Made by a program: the position numbers and the translations under genes
DNA from: a virus
Direction: 5' to 3' (one strand)
Length of the DNA stretch: 41,029 bases
IMG/VR virus record: IMGVR_UViG_3300045988_017677
Part shown: positions 9,940 to 35,748 of the stretch, in pieces
Numbering within the stretch: position 1 is the stretch's first letter
Layout: every line of letters begins with the position of its first letter
The notes under the pieces: generated by a model
Told to the model about the DNA's origin: nothing
Seen by the model: only the letters and a program-made list of their open reading frames with translations
Database searches by the model: none

Positions 9940-11079
9940 TCACTTTGCGGTCACGCTCGCGTTGCCGCTCTTGAGCGCGTGGTAGTTGCCGTCGCACTCG
10001 ACCACGGTCACGGTCTGGCCGGTCGCAATGGTCAGGTCGCTCTTGCCGTCCCAATCGTTCCAACCGGCAACGTTGTCGCCGTAAGCGACGGTCGCGGCAG
10101 AGGCACCGGACGTGTACTTATACTTGTTGCCCGCAGCGGCCTTTGCCGGAGATACGGTCAGCTTGGTATCGCCGCTCTTGGAGCCTGCGGCAGAGGTGAC
10201 CGTCAAAGAGCCGAGCGTGCCGTTGCCGATGGTGCCAACGACCACGCCGTCAATGCGCTCGGCAAACAGCTCCATGCCGTTAATAACGGTGTCCGATGCG
10301 GTCATGTTGGTGTAATCAGGCTCCTCATGGATGCCGATGTAGCCGGTCGCATCGGTGGTAAAAGTGAAGACCTCCTGCAGATCCGCGCCGTTGACGGGGA
10401 TGTAGTAGAGGACGATGTTGTCCTTCGCCGTGGCGTAAATCTTACCCTTGGGGACGCTGGCGTTCATAATGAGCGTGCCGAGGCCAAGGAAGTTTTCGAC
10501 GTAGCTCATGCCGAACGCGGTCTGCACGGTGATGTTGGCCGTAGACAGGTAATCCGCAACGTCCAGCGGATTCATGAAGTAGACCGCGCCGATCTCGTCG
10601 TCCTCGAAAAGGACCTGCAGATTGCCCCACGCCTGCGCAAGAACAGTCTGGAAGTTCTTGCCGCTCACCGCGCCGGTGCCGGTCGAGAGGAAGTCAAAGA
10701 AGCTCTTGCGGATGCCCTTCTGCACATCCTTGAGCATTTCGTCGGTGGTCATCTCCACCGCCTGATCGTAGCCGCGATCGGTGATCGCCTCGGCAGAGGT
10801 AGCCTTGCGCCACTTCTTGAGCGTGATCTCCTTGTAGTTCACAGCCTCGGTCTTGTAGTGAGAAAGGGGGATGGTGTCACCCTCGGCCACAACGCCGCTC
10901 TCGAGCGTGCCGGTCGCCTTGTAGCTCTTAAGCACAGTACCGGCCTGCTTGGCGATCTTACGGGTCACGCCCAAGGCCTCCATCAGCTTCTTGATGGAGT
11001 AACCGAACATTTCGGTAAATTCGATCTCGCGCACGCGGGCGAGGTCATTTTTCTTGATCAGATTGGTTTCAGCAGCCAT
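9940..11079 (-). CDS. Major capsid protein with C-terminal Ig-like extension
   Basis: 379 aa, following the scaffold gene. The last ~90 aa (TLGSLTVTSAAGSKSGDTKLTVSPAKAAAGNKYKY...) look like an Ig-like decoration domain. Confidence 0.9.
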   Translation of the reverse strand: MAAETNLIKKNDLARVREIEFTEMFGYSIKKLMEALGVTRKIAKQAGTVLKSYKATGTLESGVVAEGDTIPLSHYKTEAVNYKEITLKKWRKATSAEAITDRGYDQAVEMTTDEMLKDVQKGIRKSFFDFLSTGTGAVSGKNFQTVLAQAWGNLQVLFEDDEIGAVYFMNPLDVADYLSTANITVQTAFGMSYVENFLGLGTLIMNASVPKGKIYATAKDNIVLYYIPVNGADLQEVFTFTTDATGYIGIHEEPDYTNMTASDTVINGMELFAERIDGVVVGTIGNGTLGSLTVTSAAGSKSGDTKLTVSPAKAAAGNKYKYTSGASAATVAYGDNVAGWNDWDGKSDLTIATGQTVTVVECDGNYHALKSGNASVTAK

Positions 11080-11750: not shown

Positions 11751-11826
11751 ATAAAAACCGCTGTGCCTCGCGGTGTTTACCTAAAACAAAAGAGCCAACC
11801 ACCGAGGATTTCTCAGTAGTTGGCTC
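11751..11826 (-). terminator. Tandem rho-independent terminators ending the antirepressor cassette
   Basis: On the minus strand, stem gagccaac/gttggctc (11792-11826) is followed by TTTTGTTTT. A second stem accgc/gcggt (11757-11774) is followed by TTTTTAT. Confidence 0.7.
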
Positions 11827-11885
11827 ATCGTGCCGTTCCGCGCGCTCAATTGCGCTGCGTGCGTTATTTACTTGCTGATATTATA

Positions 11886-12626
11886 TCACGCCACGCCCAA
11901 AAACAGCAAGCGGAATGTTTCTCTGCCTTTCGGCGTGATAAGCGTCTGTGCGCCGCTCCAATTCGTCTTTTCGTTTACCGATTCTTTGACTTCGAACAGG
12001 CCGTCGTTCTTGTGTTCATACGGGAGCAGCTTGCCCTTTTTGTCACGGTAAACGTACTTCTTTTCCAGCAGGAAAGAAACGAACTTCTTAGGCGGAACGT
12101 CCAACGCCTTTGCGGTCTCGCGGAAATTCAGCAGCGTATTTCTCTCCACAAGCTGGTCAAAATACTCGGCTTTCGGGAGCATGATCTGATTTTCCACAGT
12201 AAGCGTGGAAATGCGAGCGTCGCGATCCGCAAGCGTTTTCTGTGCCATCAGCAACGCCGATGCCATTAGCTCCTCCGGCGTCATGTTCGCCTGCCCGTTA
12301 ATGTAGCCGCCGTGCTTGCGTATGCTGGGGATAACCTCACTTGTCACCCATCGTTTGAACTTTTTCGCCGTCGGCAGCTTAGAGCCGAGGACGAGGGCGT
12401 AAAGGCCGCTTTCGTTGATAACTACCATGTTTCTGTTTTGGCTGCCGTCGTGAAACGCGACGGTGGCTTTGTCCTCACCATCTACATGGGTAGACACCGC
12501 ATCGCGCGAATTACTGTACCCAAGCGCTTCCGCAACGTCCTTACCGACGAACCACGGCGCACCGTCGCGTTCCATCGTGCGGATATTCCCAAATTCGGGA
12601 TTGTTGAAAATCATTAGTTCGTTCAT
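11886..12626 (-). CDS. Phage antirepressor (Bro-N domain plus KilAC/ANT C-terminal domain)
   Basis: 246 aa. MNELMIFNNPEFGNIRTMERDGAPWFVGKDVAEALGY is a Bro-N signature. The C-terminal half (AEYFDQLVERNTLLNFRETAKAL...) is KilAC-like. Confidence 0.85.
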   Translation of the reverse strand: MNELMIFNNPEFGNIRTMERDGAPWFVGKDVAEALGYSNSRDAVSTHVDGEDKATVAFHDGSQNRNMVVINESGLYALVLGSKLPTAKKFKRWVTSEVIPSIRKHGGYINGQANMTPEELMASALLMAQKTLADRDARISTLTVENQIMLPKAEYFDQLVERNTLLNFRETAKALDVPPKKFVSFLLEKKYVYRDKKGKLLPYEHKNDGLFEVKESVNEKTNWSGAQTLITPKGRETFRLLFLGVA

Positions 12627-12850
12627 GCAATGTCCTCCTTCTTCATCGGGCGCATTTTGATCTCAAGCTCAAAGCTCCCCTCTTTGCCGCAGAAAATATC
12701 TTTCACAATATAGTCCCCGAATACTTCGACCATAACATCGTCATATCCGGACGTGCCAGCACGAAAAAGCGCATATGCGCATCCATTCACGGCAACATCA
12801 ACTTCTTTCGGGTCGTGGATAAGCTCGCAGGCTTCTCTAACAGTAAGCAT
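12623..12850 (-). CDS. Hypothetical protein (75 aa) coupled to the antirepressor
   Basis: SD TGAGGT lies 7 nt upstream of the ATG at 12850. The stop overlaps the antirepressor start. Confidence 0.6.
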   Translation of the reverse strand: MLTVREACELIHDPKEVDVAVNGCAYALFRAGTSGYDDVMVEVFGDYIVKDIFCGKEGSFELEIKMRPMKKEDIA

Positions 12851-12868
12851 AATAAAACCTCATTTCTC

Positions 12869-12898
12869 TTGACTTTGAGGCTTCCACGATGATAGAAT
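12869..12898 (+). promoter_or_regulatory. Antisense sigma70-type promoter
   Basis: TTGACT (12869-12874), an 18-nt spacer, then TAGAAT (12893-12898) preceded by an extended-10 TG (12890-12891). Confidence 0.6.
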
Positions 12899-12904
12899 GA
12901 GATT

Positions 12905-12973
12905 TACCAACGGGGAAACCTGTTGCGATTTGAACGCTCACGTTGTCTTGGTCGGACGGTGGGCGTTCTTTTT
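12905..12973 (+). ncRNA. Candidate ~70-nt antisense sRNA (sar-like)
   Basis: It starts just downstream of the promoter. A 5' hairpin (caacgg 12908-12913 / ctgttg 12920-12925) is followed by a 10-bp terminator stem (12932-12941 / 12959-12968) and ttttt. There is no plausible ORF. Confidence 0.5.
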
Positions 12974-13145
12974 ATTTGCCGATTTCTTCTTCAAGCTTCT
13001 TTCTGAACCACTCCGTTCGGCCCTCGCCCTTTTCGGCGAGTTTTCTATCGAGTGCTTCGGCCTTTTCCTTGTCAACCATAAAAACTAATTGCTTCATGGC
13101 TTTCCTGCGCTCTCGGAAATATTCGGCGCGGCTTTTTTCAGCCAT
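12972..13145 (-). CDS. Arc/CopG-type ribbon-helix-helix protein (57 aa, below the ORF-track cutoff)
   Basis: Hand translation gives MAEKSRAEYFRERRKAMKQLVFMVDKEKAEALDRKLAEKGEGRTEWFRKKLEEEIGK. SD GGAGGTG lies 6 nt before the ATG at 13145. The beta-alpha-alpha pattern is typical of RHH repressors. Confidence 0.65.
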   Translation of the reverse strand: MAEKSRAEYFRERRKAMKQLVFMVDKEKAEALDRKLAEKGEGRTEWFRKKLEEEIGK

Positions 13146-13164
13146 TTCATCACCTCCGTTGTGG

Positions 13165-13201
13165 CTAACTACATTATATTTGTAGTTAGTTACAATGTCA
13201 A
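13165..13201 (-). promoter_or_regulatory. Perfect-consensus promoter overlapped by a palindromic operator
   Basis: On the minus strand, TTGACA (13196-13201), a 17-nt spacer, then TATAAT (13173-13178). The inverted repeat CTAACTACA-N7-TGTAGTTAG (13165-13189) covers the -10 and the likely start site. Confidence 0.7.
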
Positions 13202-13215
13202 GAGGATTTATGAGA

Positions 13216-13344
13216 TTATTTTTTCAATTCTTCCGCTTTGATGACCTGCGCTTTTACGCTACCGTCTTTCATTCGCTTTAGCTGTACCCGACAACCGGCG
13301 GCAAGCGCCTTTTCGATGGCGGTTTTCAGTTTTTCGTCAATCAT
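13216..13344 (-). CDS. Small hypothetical protein (42 aa)
   Basis: MIDEKLKTAIEKALAAGCRVQLKRMKDGSVKAQVIKAEELKK. The ATG lies 8 nt after the gp10 stop with AAGGTG upstream. It is short, so the call is uncertain. Confidence 0.35.
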   Translation of the reverse strand: MIDEKLKTAIEKALAAGCRVQLKRMKDGSVKAQVIKAEELKK

Positions 13345-13352
13345 ACAGCACC

Positions 13353-13757
13353 TTATCCATTTTTCAGCTCGCTTTCCAGAATGTCCCGATACTGTCCCGC
13401 ATGGTCGGCGGCAGCGGGTTTCAAAAATGGCTGCGCCTTGTTGCCGCGCGTGTAATGCCAATTTCCCTTTGCGTCCTGATACACCCACGGTGTAGGCCGT
13501 CCGCCGCCGCCCTCGGCGTAAATGCCGGTGCCAAGCTCAACATAAGCGGCATACTCATTGTTCGTTCCGATGATTGCCGCTGGTTCCTGCTCATCTACCA
13601 CATGGGTGATGCTGTTCCGCAGATTGCCGGTGTCCACGGGGCACAGCTTTTTCGCATATCCCTCTGCCACCAGACCAATCTTTTCCAGCCCCCGCAGAAG
13701 CGCCGCATGGATGGCGCCAGAAACCTCTTTGCTGTTGTCGGTGATTTCAACGTTCAT
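13353..13757 (-). CDS. HK97 gp10-family head-tail protein
   Basis: 134 aa from the ATG at 13757 with SD AGAGGGA. Motifs: PVDTGNLRNSI, YAAYVELGTG, AQPFLKPA. Confidence 0.8.
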   Translation of the reverse strand: MNVEITDNSKEVSGAIHAALLRGLEKIGLVAEGYAKKLCPVDTGNLRNSITHVVDEQEPAAIIGTNNEYAAYVELGTGIYAEGGGGRPTPWVYQDAKGNWHYTRGNKAQPFLKPAAADHAGQYRDILESELKNG

Positions 13758-13868
13758 CAAAAAATCCCTCTTGACTTTTTTTCGGGAATTGCATATACTG
13801 ACAGTGAGGAAACTCATGTTTCCGTTTTTTCGAGCCGAACCTCTTCCCGTTACTGGAGGGGGGGCGGC

Positions 13869-15359
13869 TCATTTTTTATACCTTCGTGCGAACAGGAGAG
13901 AACCGTTCTCATCCAATGCAATCACATCAAAACCGAACCCATTGCTAACCACGCTGCGAACTGCTCTATCATCTACAATGCGTATAAGCTCATCTGTATT
14001 GATGGATCCTGTGCACTGTAACACAACCCCTCCAGGAGTTTTTGCAATCTGCTTTGTGGCTTTTCGAATCGCCATATCTGCCGCTTTCGCTGTTGATATA
14101 CTTTTCAATTCCCACTGTTTACCTCGCCACAGGTAGTCTGGCGTTTTTATCCCCTGCGTATTCGCTTCTTTCAACAGCACGAACTTCCCGCCGAATTGAT
14201 CTCTGAGTTGGTTTGCAACTTCGATTTCGGTCTTGTGCCCTTTTATGCGGTATCCGTTCTCGTATCGCACCTTACCCATGCGGGGCTTGGCGGAATCTAT
14301 ATATTTCTTCGTAACATCCTTTGCAGATTTTTCGCTCCCCATGTGATATGGGGATAACTGTTTGCCGCTGTATCCCTGCTTCGATGCTTCCCACTGCGCA
14401 TATGTCATGTCAGATATAAGCCCGTCGCGTGTCCTACGCAGCCCGTCTGATGTATCTACCCCATCCACATCAGCAACCAGCGTGCAGCGGCAGTTATACA
14501 CAAGATAACCGGGTGCAGACGCATCGCCGGGGTACATAATCTCGTACCCATCGATTTTAAACGGCTTGTCGATTTCGGCCCGCTGACCGTCCAGCATTGC
14601 ATGGGCGTGCCGAGTTCGTCCGTCCAGCGTCGCCACCCACTCCCGCTTGAGCTTGATGCCCATATTTTCCGCCGCCGCGTAGCTGTCCATGCGCCCCGCG
14701 TTCTGTGCACCTGTCACGGCAGTTCTGGCGGTACGGATAGCGCTGTCGCGGCTCATGGTGGTAATGCGCTTTTGCAGGTCGTCCGCCATGTGCTTGATGC
14801 TCTTTCCCTGCAAGATGGAGCTGGTGACACTGGCCGTAATTTGCTTCTTGCCGTATGCGAGATCAATCCCGCGTTTCAGCGCTCTGCCCTTTGGATAGTA
14901 CGGCATCAACTCCGGTTGCTCCGCAATCAGGCGTTTAACCGTCTGCTCGTCCCACAGGTCAAAGCCGACGTTGCCCACGACCTGCTCGATGGTGTACGCC
15001 GAATAGTTGCGGTTGAGGGAGTAGATACCGGGCGTAGCATCGTTGGTGTAGGACACCGCCACAGCGTTTGCATCGGTCATGCGGTGCGCCACCTTGTCCC
15101 GCATAGCTTGATAGCGTTCTCCGCGCCCGATCTGGTTTAGCCGCCATTGCTTATAGTCAGCCTCCGTCCATTCCTTGCCGTTCTGCACGGTGCCGATCAG
15201 AGCCTTCATTTCCTCGTCGCGCTTTTTGAATTGCTCAAAATATGCGTCGATGGTAGCTTGCAGTTCTTCCCCCGCCTCGCGGTATAGCGTTGCAATACGA
15301 CGTTCCAGCTTCGCAAGCTCCTTATCGGTCAGCTTGTGTCCGAGGTCACTGTTCGCCAT
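13869..15359 (-). CDS. Minor head protein (MuF / SPP1 gp7 family) fused to a C-terminal PD-(D/E)xK-like nuclease/toxin-type domain
   Basis: 496 aa. MuF motifs are WVATLDGRTRHAHAMLDGQ and YLVYNCRCTL (aa ~240-295). An extra ~190 aa carries HKTEIEV, TPDYLWRG and QWELKS. Confidence 0.85.
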   Translation of the reverse strand: MANSDLGHKLTDKELAKLERRIATLYREAGEELQATIDAYFEQFKKRDEEMKALIGTVQNGKEWTEADYKQWRLNQIGRGERYQAMRDKVAHRMTDANAVAVSYTNDATPGIYSLNRNYSAYTIEQVVGNVGFDLWDEQTVKRLIAEQPELMPYYPKGRALKRGIDLAYGKKQITASVTSSILQGKSIKHMADDLQKRITTMSRDSAIRTARTAVTGAQNAGRMDSYAAAENMGIKLKREWVATLDGRTRHAHAMLDGQRAEIDKPFKIDGYEIMYPGDASAPGYLVYNCRCTLVADVDGVDTSDGLRRTRDGLISDMTYAQWEASKQGYSGKQLSPYHMGSEKSAKDVTKKYIDSAKPRMGKVRYENGYRIKGHKTEIEVANQLRDQFGGKFVLLKEANTQGIKTPDYLWRGKQWELKSISTAKAADMAIRKATKQIAKTPGGVVLQCTGSINTDELIRIVDDRAVRSVVSNGFGFDVIALDENGSLLFARRYKK

Positions 15360-16701
15360 CGCCGTTCACCTCCGGCGCATTCGGTTCCGCAAAGCTCCGG
15401 TCAATCTCTTCTGCAGCCTTCCGCTTTGCCATGTCCTCGTACTGGTCAATGTCGCCGTTGATGGTCAGCAGCTTCTTTGTGATGTATTCGTCATCGTAAT
15501 ACGCCGCGCCAAGAAGGATATTTTGCGTTTCCTCGCTCTTGTTGATGATTTGGTTGCGCGTGTAACTCGGCTGATCCTCAATGCCTGCCAAACGCAGAAT
15601 TTCCACGATAAAACGCGTGACCTCAGACTCAAACTTGTCCGTTTTCAAATCCAGCGGCACATAGCTTGCCTTGATTGCCGTTGCCGTTTGGTTGCCCGCG
15701 GATACCGCCGCAGCGTCAAAGCACTGGAAATCTTCATAGAGCTTCTTTTTCAGCATATCAATGGTGCTGCTCGTGCCCTCATACGGCGCCTCGATGGTCC
15801 TGCTCTCCACCTTCGCGCCGTCATCGCCGTTGGCATGGGCGACGTGTGTGGTTTTCAAGCGTTCCACAAATTTCGCGTCGTCCAGATCGTCCATGCCGTT
15901 GCAGTTAGAAAGCACCCAATAGATCAGATTTCCCTCGTCCACGTTGTTGACCATGTTAGAGGACGCAAGATCCAGCGCGTCGATGGTGTTGCGCTTGCCG
16001 ACAATTTCGGACAGACACCGCTTGTTGTTTTTCAGCGGCACGATGGGAAAGCTCGGATAATTGCCGCCGTCGTAAATCTCGGTTTCGCCGACTTCGGCCT
16101 TGCGGATAACGATCTTGTAGCTGCGCTTTTCCTGCAATACGCTCATATCTTTGTTCTTCGGCTGGAAATATTCGGTAAAGCCGTCCAGCTCGTACAGTGT
16201 CGCTCGCAAAGGCTTATCCGGCGCCACTTGCCAAAAGCGGATGCCGGCTTTCATTGCACCGTCCTCTTCATCATAGAGGGGAACGAACTCAAGCAGGGAG
16301 AACACCCGAAGATGCGTCAGATCCCAAAAGCCGAAGGATACGCCTGCGATTTTCGCCGCCCGCGCCGCATCCATGACTTCCTGATCGAAGTCCGGGCATA
16401 GCTTGTTTGGCGTTTCCTTCTCCGCAAAGGTCACACCGTTGCCCAGCAGATATGAAACCTCCTGATCCACCGCCAGACCGAAAAACCTGCTGGCCAGCTT
16501 ATGGTTTGCCGTCCACATATCCGTGTGGCTGCGGCCCTGCATATCATAGATGATTTTCTCATAGCGGTTGATGGTCGGATTCAAGCCGTCATAGTACGCC
16601 TCCGCATCTACCGCCGTTTTATACGCCGTGCTCTCGCGGTGCTCATTGATCGTGCTTCGGACAAACTCAATGCGCGCCTGCTCGTTGTCACCGACCGCCA
16701 C
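15346..16701 (-). CDS. Portal protein (SPP1 gp6-like)
   Basis: 451 aa, located between terL and MuF. The N-terminus STAYKTAVDAEAYYDGLNPTI... is typical. The start is GTG with no clear SD, so it is uncertain. Confidence 0.9.
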   Translation of the reverse strand: MAVGDNEQARIEFVRSTINEHRESTAYKTAVDAEAYYDGLNPTINRYEKIIYDMQGRSHTDMWTANHKLASRFFGLAVDQEVSYLLGNGVTFAEKETPNKLCPDFDQEVMDAARAAKIAGVSFGFWDLTHLRVFSLLEFVPLYDEEDGAMKAGIRFWQVAPDKPLRATLYELDGFTEYFQPKNKDMSVLQEKRSYKIVIRKAEVGETEIYDGGNYPSFPIVPLKNNKRCLSEIVGKRNTIDALDLASSNMVNNVDEGNLIYWVLSNCNGMDDLDDAKFVERLKTTHVAHANGDDGAKVESRTIEAPYEGTSSTIDMLKKKLYEDFQCFDAAAVSAGNQTATAIKASYVPLDLKTDKFESEVTRFIVEILRLAGIEDQPSYTRNQIINKSEETQNILLGAAYYDDEYITKKLLTINGDIDQYEDMAKRKAAEEIDRSFAEPNAPEVNGDGEQ

Positions 16702-34075: not shown

Positions 34076-34657
34076 ATGGAGAAATCGTTGCAGGACACTT
34101 GTCGGGACGCAAAACTGGAACAGCACATCACGGCGCAGGAGATAGCAGACCAATCCGGTGTGCCTTTGTCCAGCGTCAACAACTTTTTCGCGTCTACATC
34201 TAAAGCACCGGGCGTGTATGCGGCTGGCCCCATCTGCAAGGTGCTGGGGGTGTCTATGGACCGTTACTTTGGCATTGTAGAGGTTGTTTTGGCGCAAGAC
34301 CAAATCAAGCAGCTCCAGCAAGTCCATGACGAGGATGTGCGCCTTGCACGGATAGAGGGCGCATACGATGAGCTGTCTAAATCAGCAGAGGAGCAGAAGA
34401 GAAAAGCAAGGCGGCAGCGCACGATGCTGTATATCACATCGCTGCTGTCCGCTATCCTGCTGGGTATAGTTACATGGTATGTGGCGCTTGATTACCATGT
34501 GCAGGACGAAGGCCTAATCCGATCCAGGACAGCCGGTACGATTGCATGGATTGTCATTGCGCTTTTGGCGTTGGGTATCGGCGTACTTACATCCGTGCTA
34601 TTGTCCACTCTTGCGGCGGGCAAAAAATCCAAACAAGACGAGGAAGCAGAAAAATGA
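34076..34657 (+). CDS. Membrane-anchored XRE-type HTH regulator (HTH, coiled coil, 2 TM)
   Basis: 193 aa from the ATG at 34076. HTH segment ITAQEIADQSGVPLSSVNNFF. A charged helix follows, then two TMs (LYITSLLSAILLGIVTWYVAL and IAWIVIALLALGIGVLTSVLLSTL). The stop overlaps the int start (ATGA). Confidence 0.7.
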   Translation: MEKSLQDTCRDAKLEQHITAQEIADQSGVPLSSVNNFFASTSKAPGVYAAGPICKVLGVSMDRYFGIVEVVLAQDQIKQLQQVHDEDVRLARIEGAYDELSKSAEEQKRKARRQRTMLYITSLLSAILLGIVTWYVALDYHVQDEGLIRSRTAGTIAWIVIALLALGIGVLTSVLLSTLAAGKKSKQDEEAEK

Positions 34658-35748
34658 GCAACTGCATTAAATGCGGAACAACTCTTGTCCCCGGCGCTGT
34701 ATATTGCCATCTCTGTGGAAAAAAACAGGTAACAGAGCGGCGAAAAGCATTGAAGCGGGCAAACGGCACCGGAACTGTATACAAACTGGCTGGGCGTAGA
34801 AAATCGCCTTGGGTGGCAGCAAAAAACAAAGTGATTATCGGGCATTATGAGCGCAAAACGGGCGCTCTGGACGCTTTGGAGCGGTTGAACGGCAAGAGCT
34901 TAACGGAGCGGTATAATATGACCTTTGCAGAAGTCTTTGATGTGTGGAAAGAGGAGCATTACAAGGAGATCGGCAAGCAGGGGGTAGAATCATATAACAA
35001 CGCCTACCGCATATTTACGCCGTTGCACGGGAAAAAGTTTCGCGATCTCCGCACCGCAGACTTTCAGGCCGTACTTGACCCGCACATGGCCAAAAGCCAT
35101 TCCACCGTGAACAAGTACAAGCAGCTCATAACGCAGATGTCGAACTGGGCAATCCGGGAAGAAATATGCACGACAAATTTTGCAAAATTTGTGCGATTGC
35201 CGGAGAATGTCAAAAAAGAAAAGGACATCTTCACGGAGGAAGATATCCGTAAATTGGAATCCGATAACAGCGATTCGGCAAAAATTGTCTTGATGCTGCT
35301 GGCAACGGGTATGCGTATCGGGGAACTGTTCTCTTTGCCGCTGGCTGACTGCCACGGCGATTATGTGATTGGCGGCGAAAAAACCGAAGCCGGCAGAAAC
35401 CGAATTATCCCCATTCGACCGGAGGGGAAACAATACTTTGCCTACTTTGCGAAGCGAGCAACGGGGGAGCTGCTGTTATCCGGCTACGATGGGCAAAAAG
35501 TCCCGGCAAACTTCCGCAGGCGAGATTTTTACCCACTCCTTGACCGACTGGGCATAGAGCGCAAGACCCCACACGCCACACGCCACACATACGCATCCCG
35601 GGCGGTAAAAGAGGGATTGCCCCCAGAAATGCTGCAAAAAATACTCGGGCACGCCGATTATTCCACCACCGCAAACATATATACGCACATCGACGCGCAG
35701 ACACTTGTGGATGCGGTTACTAACACGTTACTAACAAATAAAAAATAA
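34654..35748 (+). CDS. int: Tyrosine integrase with N-terminal zinc-ribbon
   Basis: 364 aa. Motifs: CIKCGTTLVPGAVYCHLCG, then ATGMRIGEL, HATRHTYAS and LGHADYSTTANIYTH. Confidence 0.95.
   Translation: MSNCIKCGTTLVPGAVYCHLCGKKQVTERRKALKRANGTGTVYKLAGRRKSPWVAAKNKVIIGHYERKTGALDALERLNGKSLTERYNMTFAEVFDVWKEEHYKEIGKQGVESYNNAYRIFTPLHGKKFRDLRTADFQAVLDPHMAKSHSTVNKYKQLITQMSNWAIREEICTTNFAKFVRLPENVKKEKDIFTEEDIRKLESDNSDSAKIVLMLLATGMRIGELFSLPLADCHGDYVIGGEKTEAGRNRIIPIRPEGKQYFAYFAKRATGELLLSGYDGQKVPANFRRRDFYPLLDRLGIERKTPHATRHTYASRAVKEGLPPEMLQKILGHADYSTTANIYTHIDAQTLVDAVTNTLLTNKK

Follow-up and report, generated by a model that had tools for sequence, protein, structure and literature searches.

The viral DNA of IMG/VR record IMGVR_UViG_3300045988_017677 (41,029 nt, referred to here as the window) encodes on its minus strand a MuF head-morphogenesis protein of 496 amino acids (aa) that continues beyond the MuF domain. 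We conclude with high confidence that MuF is here fused to a PD-(D/E)xK nuclease toxin domain of the CdiA-CT(Bp1026b)/PF18451 family. The gap behind the gene, which an initial annotation of the sequence had pointed out, is not empty non-coding DNA: a conserved small-RNA gene, predicted on the opposite strand, lies there and converges on the toxin gene. The toxin part is ordinary and belongs to a known class; the RNA part is unexpected. Our tentative proposal, which we rate slightly short of probable, is that the RNA controls the toxin, most likely as an antidote or safety lock.

A predicted small-RNA gene converges on the toxin gene

The MuF-toxin gene (13869..15359, minus strand) was taken from the list of open reading frames (ORFs) and identified by Phage_Mu_F and TIGR01641. 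A gap of 111 nt separates it, as the initial annotation had measured, from the next gene, which starts at 13757 and encodes an HK97-gp10_like structural protein (13353..13757, minus strand; PF04883, E 1.8e-8) that is a constant neighbor. On the plus strand of the gap a promoter scan gave 10 of 12 matches for the −35 hexamer TTGACT (13771-13776) and the −10 hexamer TATACT (13794-13799), separated by a 17-nt spacer (promoter 13771..13799). Together with two stem-loops and a U-tract, this promoter predicts an antisense RNA of ~75 nt (13806..13880, plus strand). Folding places stem-loop 1, GGAAAC/GUUUCC, at 13808-13823 and a GC-rich terminator hairpin at 13832-13870. The terminator hairpin ends on the complement of the toxin stop codon (13869-13871) and is followed by the U-tract UUUUUU (13872-13877), the complement of the K495-K496 codons. 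A covariance model of the whole element has a single match in the window, at 13771..13886 on the plus strand (122 bits, E 5e-22). As predicted, the element has all the parts of a unit that transcribes a small RNA of ~75 nt towards the toxin gene. No sense-strand terminator was found, neither hairpin being followed by a U-tract on the minus strand, and a search of Rfam 15 up to E 10 returned no match for the element.

The core of the terminator hairpin, CCUCYGCCC ... UGGYGGRGG (13832..13870 and relatives), is conserved in sequence even in loci of 30% GC. Read on the sense strand, it gives a Shine-Dalgarno (SD)-like GGnGGAGG ~25 nt after the toxin stop codon, with no start codon following.

Base pairing, strand preference and promoter conservation all argue that the RNA gene is real. 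Across 16 distinct variants of the element, 96.4% of pair cells are standard and 10 of the 20 pairs show compensatory changes, a level that 0 of 500 shuffles reached; slid controls gave 42-63%. G.U pairs occur at several plus-strand positions, one of them in all 16 variants. Because the sense strand would have A.C mismatches there, the plus strand folds more stably (−27 to −37 kcal/mol, against −17 to −29 kcal/mol for the sense strand), by 4-20 kcal/mol (median ~10) in 13 of 13 variants. The corresponding values for the window are −34.7 kcal/mol (z −5.7) on the plus strand and −24.0 kcal/mol (z −3.5) on the minus strand. The promoter hexamers with a spacing of 16-18 nt are present in 110 of 114 copies of the element, and distant copies carry TTGACT-17-TGG-TATAAA, TTGATT-17-TATAAT and TTGACG-17-TATATA. 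In L003, where the toxin is 3 residues longer (...RYKKANP*), the extra codons lie in the hairpin arm and the Lys-Lys codons still give the U-tract. On this comparative evidence the small-RNA gene is very likely real.

The same conserved structure might instead act as DNA, the two hairpins serving as a cassette boundary or recombination signal for toxin swapping with no RNA made. The element does lie at the 3' edge of the exchangeable toxin cassette, and G.T pairs are tolerated in single-stranded DNA too. This explanation is nevertheless highly improbable, given that the element, with its conserved sigma-A-type promoter of fixed spacing and its hairpin followed by a U-tract, is a complete transcription unit, that other toxin cassettes in the same slot lack such an element, and that no dedicated recombinase is linked to it.

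The RNA element accompanies the toxin domain across phages and chromosomes

The covariance model gives one match after each of 80 toxin genes (80 loci). We also compared MuF C-termini in 79 loci chosen through the gp10-like gene; the element is present in 33 of the 33 with the PD-(D/E)xK toxin and in 0 of the 46 others. Weaker matches occur at the same place and on the same strand at toxin genes of 33-47% identity, at a locus in which MuF and a 179-aa toxin gene are split (L172), at two stand-alone chromosomal toxin genes (L173 and L175), and in Faecalibacterium phage Aster. A scan of IMG/VR that started from the hairpin core, with a search pattern that itself demanded the complement of the KK-stop codons, yielded 114 matches. 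Of these, 101 lie behind the toxin motif and 4 are truncated where the locus ends; the other 9, which end in ...KK*, are divergent or degraded copies. The gene downstream of the element varies between loci and can be gp10-like, Mom, a 66-aa membrane protein, another small ORF or terminase-like. This linkage, seen in the 80-locus and 79-locus sets and at the stand-alone and distant copies, indicates that toxin domain and RNA are one inherited module.

The stand-alone genes of L173 (1800..3115) and L175 (2501..3140) encode toxin domains of 168 and 180 aa, and the same antisense promoter, hairpin and U-tract follow each. The L173 gene overlaps an upstream gene of the XRE helix-turn-helix (HTH) type by 4 nt. 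A chromosomal prophage remnant, L001 (6001..8067), lies between feoB and a Na/Ala symporter gene and keeps only a 247-aa ORF with an intact toxin domain, the RNA element, and one Mom-like and one gp10-like gene. What has been retained there would be consistent with toxin and RNA forming an addictive pair.

The C-terminal extension is very probably an active nuclease

The MuF hallmarks reported in the initial annotation, ATLDGRTRHAHAMLDGQ and VYNCRCTL, are present in the 496-aa ORF. Phage_Mu_F (PF04233) matches aa 173-294 (14478..14843, minus strand; E 8e-19, Pfam), the position that this SPP1 gp7-like core also has in sister proteins with other C-termini, and TIGR01641 (SPP1 gp7) matches aa 178-296 (E 3e-10, NCBIfam). 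The extension described there is real as well, ~200 aa following the MuF domain, and the nuclease domain takes up aa ~345-496 (13872..14327, minus strand). Its motifs are H375-KTEIEV (E378, E380), TPDYLWRG with P407-D408 (nt 14136-14141) and QWELKS with E417-L-K419 (nt 14103-14111), all as initially read.

The restriction-endonuclease-fold catalytic signature proposed from these motifs is borne out by 50 diverse relatives, in which E378 is kept in 49, D408, K419 and Q437 in 50 each and K436 in 42, and position 417 is acidic in all 50 (E in 26, D in 24). In HKTEIEV the proposal stands for E378; E380 is not conserved. The motif residues E378, D408, E417 and K419, with K436-Q437, span 14052..14228 on the minus strand.

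Profile and fold comparisons lead to the same family. PF18451 (CdiA_C) is matched by 37 of the 50 family representatives at E ≤0.001 (best 2.6e-9). The window protein itself scores 21.6-23.7 bits with this Pfam profile, for which the cut-off is 26.6, over aa 405-437 and profile positions 1-36 of 81 only. A search with a profile of the domain gave 889 clusters at 50% identity, with the domain C-terminal in all matches listed; the N-termini of the 50 scanned representatives are Phage_Mu_F, Phage_min_cap2 or VG15. An AlphaFold2 (AF2) model of the domain (pLDDT 91.5; elements H48-61, E65-67, E81-83, E86-93, H96-109 and E114-121) has one significant fold match in the PDB, 4g6v_A, the CdiA-CT/CdiI complex of B. 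pseudomallei 1026b (E 1.1e-4, prob 1.0, TM 0.44/0.53, 16% identity). Matches in the viral structure library BFVD are MuF "minor capsid" proteins, a "CDI toxin-like protein" and a "tRNA nuclease CdiA C-terminal domain" protein. Neither the domain nor three profiles retrieved anything relevant from the PDB by sequence, and the link to 4G6V comes from the fold search only. The PD-(D/E)xK assignment follows from the profile matches in the family, the fold match to 4G6V_A and the conserved E378, D408, E/D417 and K419, and the domain is very probably an active nuclease of this type.

The Bp1026b toxin has catalytic residues E187, D214, D223 and K242 and acts on tRNA-Ala (reviewed in PMC9086364). This CdiA-CT(II) toxin, which pairs with CdiI (4G6V; PF18451, cd13442), and the window domain share the PD-(D/E)xK fold and a place at the C-terminal end of a delivery protein, and their acidic and lysine residues are equally spaced: D408-(+9)-E417-(+19)-K436 in the window is identical to D214-D223-K242. 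They differ in that the window domain has no sequence-level match in the PDB, its family additionally retains the classical ExK lysine (K419), its delivery vehicle would be a phage capsid instead of type V secretion, and no CdiI-like protein accompanies it. Whether tRNA or DNA is the substrate cannot be told from a fold match of 16% identity and TM 0.44-0.53.

The protein is very probably a MuF polymorphic toxin of a temperate gut phage

MuF toxins were defined by Jamet et al. 2017 in temperate Firmicutes phages, with cd13442 (the CdiA-CT Bp1026b tRNase domain) listed among their toxin domains (PMC5576092). The fusion is thus of an already described class, as the initial annotation had said, and the window protein is very probably a MuF polymorphic toxin. 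It shares with that class an N-terminal MuF domain adjoining the portal gene, a temperate siphophage of the human gut as carrier, and a variable C-terminal toxin domain also found in other polymorphic toxin families. The window toxin type differs from the class in having no immunity ORF, with the convergent small-RNA gene in that slot instead.

The SPP1-type portal gene (15346..16701; PF05133, E 3e-34) lies directly upstream and overlaps the MuF start. The MuF-toxin gene belongs to the late operon, where it stands between portal and scaffold. The window phage has the genes of a siphophage, with large terminase, tape-measure protein, amidase, tyrosine integrase and an HTH repressor-like gene; the integrase (34546..35748, PF00589) marks it as temperate. 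In an alignment-based genome scan (8 loci), the closest genome-assembly relatives are Oscillospiraceae and the others belong to other Clostridia. Phage Aster, in which a distant relative occurs, is a cultured phage.

One MuF core carries at least 12 different C-termini ahead of the gp10-like gene in the 79 loci: the window domain, two ADP-ribosyltransferases (ADPrib_exo_Tox), ATLF-like (anthrax-LF-like) and M90-like metallopeptidase-like domains, a DUF6883-like domain and several of no known type. The C-terminus varies between phages that are otherwise 90-100% identical, and the gp10-like gene is at least 90% identical among phages that differ in this way. Near-identical phages bear quite different C-termini. 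This rules out a conserved structural role of the extension within MuF, the outcome that the initial annotation itself had named as speaking against a toxin.

The window itself is mosaic. Outside 15470..13400 it is 100% identical to L073. L005 matches it at 100% identity over the block 15110..13490, which begins inside MuF (~aa 84), takes in the toxin domain and extends as far as the gp10-like gene. Between the window and L073 the toxin domain is 67% identical and its flanks are 100% identical; by this pattern the window is a recombinant with an L073-like backbone. Toxin variants of the sister phages form 99%, ~72% and ~67% classes. At aa ~443-473 of the toxin domain (13941..14030, minus strand) a hypervariable stretch falls to 42% nt identity to L073 despite the 100% identical flanks. 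Between phages with 90-100% identical flanks this stretch shows 42-52% nt identity and resembles a diversifying exchange of a surface or specificity subdomain.

The immunity slot holds no protein candidate

In eight sister toxin types, an ORF of 53-102 aa with no Pfam match exactly fills the space from the MuF stop to the gp10-like start. These ORFs follow the expected immunity arrangement and are presumed to be immunity genes. In the PD-(D/E)xK type the slot always measures 107-111 nt and contains no conserved ORF, in agreement with the earlier statement that no protein immunity gene lies between the toxin and gp10-like genes. AGTCAA, which the RNA promoter places ahead of the SD sequence of the downstream gene, is absent at gp10-like genes behind other toxin types.

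Neither a small ORF nor the RNA element is present in L124, L133, L160 and L161, where the MuF stop overlaps the gp10-like start by 4 nt, or in L148 and L171. The three C-terminal types concerned, one ending ...NEFLAECFAYAKLG..., one ATLF-like and one of no known type, may not be toxic to the producer.

The initial annotation offered a 42-aa ORF (13216..13344) and a 75-aa ORF (12623..12850) as immunity candidates. Both exist, and neither is kept with the toxin. The 75-aa ORF belongs to an antirepressor moron (11792..13201, minus strand) inserted between the gp10-like and scaffold genes, with a perfect TTGACA-17-TATAAT promoter (13201..13173), a 57-aa ORF, a Bro-N/ANT antirepressor gene (11886..12626) and a strong terminator (11826..11792). 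The 42-aa ORF immediately follows the gp10-like gene and precedes the moron promoter by a short distance. The insert with the 42-aa, 57-aa and 75-aa ORFs is found in 1 of 80 related loci (L073), and in phages with a 99%-identical toxin it is absent and the gp10-like gene is directly followed by the scaffold gene. Both candidates are rejected on these grounds.

The gp10-like protein was considered as a co-varying immunity protein and rejected also: in the best 80 of 565 IMG/VR relatives it is 90-99% identical whatever the MuF C-terminus, behind ADP-ribosyltransferase, metallopeptidase-like and uncharacterized ends alike. Proximity is all that recommends it or the two small ORFs, together with the size of the gp10-like product, which lies within the limit of <150 aa set for small downstream ORFs as immunity genes in PMC5576092. 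An immunity role for any of the three is almost negligible, since the one protein stays constant behind unlike toxins and the 42-aa, 57-aa and 75-aa ORFs are missing from 79 of 80 relatives. The gp10-like protein is the sole PF04883 protein among the window proteins scanned, which makes it the phage's own neck or tail-completion protein. Its gene stands between MuF and scaffold, outside the head-tail connector module that follows the capsid gene, an order kept in hundreds of related gut phages.

An immunity protein might also be encoded away from the toxin, elsewhere in the phage, for example in its lysogeny region, or in the host genome. Many small ORFs of no known function do lie near the integrase and repressor genes. 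No immunity-family match was found among the neighboring ORFs or the 10 small ORFs near the lysogeny region, and no window homologue was found for the small ORFs behind distant toxin copies. The toxin cassette moreover recombines independently between phages, by which an unlinked pair would separate. We regard unlinked protein immunity as very unlikely.

Two further reading-frame candidates at the slot were rejected. A 41-aa ORF over the MuF stop (13747..13872) is not conserved: an A5/A6 run alters its frame, and in the L073 type the ORF is broken. Products of a −1 frameshift at A AAA AAU GA, before hairpin 1, are short and not conserved. The A run lies in the spacer 13824..13831, with A6 in the window and A5 in many relatives; depending on its length, a 37-aa leader is or is not joined to the gp10-like frame in an apparent ORF, which can mislead gene callers. 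Downstream, the ORF at the major-capsid position (9940..11079, minus strand; 379 aa), a putative capsid gene, has at its end a match to the C-terminal domain of the S-layer protein SbsC (PF18316, E 7e-12), which may be a surface decoration fused to a capsid protein.

How the RNA may act on the toxin

Procapsid entry at the portal and exit with the DNA are expected from the SPP1 gp7/MuF family. On the pattern of these families, the MuF part would carry the protein into the procapsid beside the portal (PMC5576092). The C-terminal nuclease, Mg-dependent, would then be ejected with the DNA and act in the newly infected cell. The anatomy of the RNA gene suggests that host RNA polymerase would make the RNA constitutively, lysogens included, from a host-type sigma-A promoter, and that its pairing with the toxin cistron would cover the stop codon, the 3-4 codons before it and ~63 nt of 3' sequence. 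Such a duplex might bring about duplex-specific cleavage, decay, or a message without a stop codon that enters non-stop rescue, and the RNA would be a lock against leaky late transcription of the toxin, similar in action to lambda OOP RNA on cII and to the RatA/SR4 class of antitoxin RNAs from Bacillus prophages. Two routes can be envisaged. In one, the duplex spanning the stop codon is cleaved and the resulting non-stop message leads to tagging of the toxin; in the other, the nuclease directly binds the conserved hairpin core. The chain as a whole, a MuF toxin without protein immunity and with a convergent small RNA as its antidote or lock, comes close to an even call and falls a little below it. 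The broader claim, that the Firmicutes PD-(D/E)xK toxin family, MuF-fused and stand-alone, is checked by a dedicated convergent RNA of ~55-75 nt and not by an immunity protein, is possible and more doubtful.

Several points weigh against the RNA as antidote. The RNA, its ends and its effect on the toxin are predictions from sequence. An RNA that pairs with the message cannot neutralize toxin injected from a virion, which leaves kin immunity unexplained. The RNA overlaps no ribosome-binding site, and a search for trans targets at the ribosome-binding sites of neighboring genes gave nothing above background. The small ORFs that follow the element in some distant loci (L085, L089, L091) could be protein immunity genes. 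Lack of a small ORF in the slot is not unique to the PD-(D/E)xK type, being shared by the three other C-terminal types. On the toxin side, the window protein stays under the Pfam cut-off in its PF18451 score, and its fold match to 4G6V has a TM-score of only 0.44-0.53. The sequence of the hairpin core, finally, is conserved in loci from 30% to 47% GC, and simple cis-antisense action needs no such conservation.

This last point hints at recognition of the core by a protein, possibly the nuclease itself, or by a ribosome on the sense strand. In the first case the RNA would act as a type III-like antitoxin that binds the protein, or as a substrate mimic, and it could also protect lysogens from incoming toxin. 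Neither a terminator nor cis-antisense pairing requires a fixed core, and the closest solved relative of the toxin acts on a structured RNA (tRNA). We nevertheless think this quite unlikely: the element is single-copy with no repeat array as in ToxI, the binding is purely putative, and the conserved core can be read instead on the sense strand, as the SD-like motif.

It is also conceivable that no antidote is needed, MuF being made late and only in cells about to lyse, and that the RNA is a local regulator or insulator that sets the ratio of MuF to downstream gene or the stability of the message. The place of the toxin gene in a late operon between portal and scaffold fits this, as do the ORF-less sister types and the inability of the RNA to block injected protein. 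The RNA, however, also accompanies the stand-alone chromosomal toxin genes of L173 and L175, which have no phage late operon, and its presence is independent of the downstream gene. Adjacent small ORFs are kept, despite late expression, in the eight sister types and in the two characterized MuF toxins, Apk2 and Bxa, both of which have protein immunity (PMC11699363). We therefore consider a purely local role somewhat unlikely, and retain control of the toxin by the RNA as the preferred reading.

Comparison with known RNA regulators and significance

Known RNA regulators offer partial parallels. Lambda OOP RNA is a short phage RNA with its own promoter and an intrinsic terminator, convergent with the 3' end of cII and the intergenic region and complementary to them. 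The predicted window RNA is likewise short, with its own promoter and an intrinsic terminator, and converges on the 3' end of the upstream gene; OOP differs in controlling a lysogeny regulator and not a toxin, and the sequences are unrelated. Among type I toxin-antitoxin pairs, antisense RNAs that overlap the 3' end of the toxin message are found in txpA/RatA and bsrG/SR4 of Bacillus prophages and in par of pAD1, and nuclease toxins in RalR/RalA and SymE/SymR; typical type I toxins are small hydrophobic membrane peptides. The arrangement in the window is similar, with a convergent small RNA over the 3' end of a toxin message and both prophage-borne and stand-alone chromosomal modules. The toxin differs, being an enzyme domain of 150 aa, usually fused to a capsid protein of 340 aa and encoded in a polycistronic late operon. 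It is no small hydrophobic peptide, and just the atypical RalR and SymE are comparable. The type III antitoxin ToxI of ToxIN consists of tandem repeats that precede the toxin on the same strand, and the toxin processes it. The window RNA would likewise be an RNA antidote to an endoribonuclease-type toxin and is likewise phage-associated, whereas its element is single-copy, downstream and on the opposite strand. In the literature searched, we found no antisense RNA linked to MuF toxins and no polymorphic toxin domain with a dedicated convergent small RNA.

MuF toxins are abundant in human-gut phages, and the PD-(D/E)xK type is among the commonest. The gp10-like gene, which would pass the '<150 aa downstream' immunity criterion (PMC5576092), calls for caution in surveys of this kind. 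If the antidote is an RNA, catalogues based on small downstream ORFs miss it and miscount neighbors such as the gp10-like gene. The element is present in the cultured Faecalibacterium phage Aster (PP479941, at 2471-2561), which makes the RNA idea directly testable. The conserved antisense RNA gene may be a new way of controlling MuF toxins. As an antidote, it would be an RNA-based exception to the rule of an adjacent immunity protein and, if true, the first RNA antidote of a polymorphic toxin, linking polymorphic toxins with type I or type III biology in a compact toxin-plus-RNA module that moves between capsid proteins and chromosomes.

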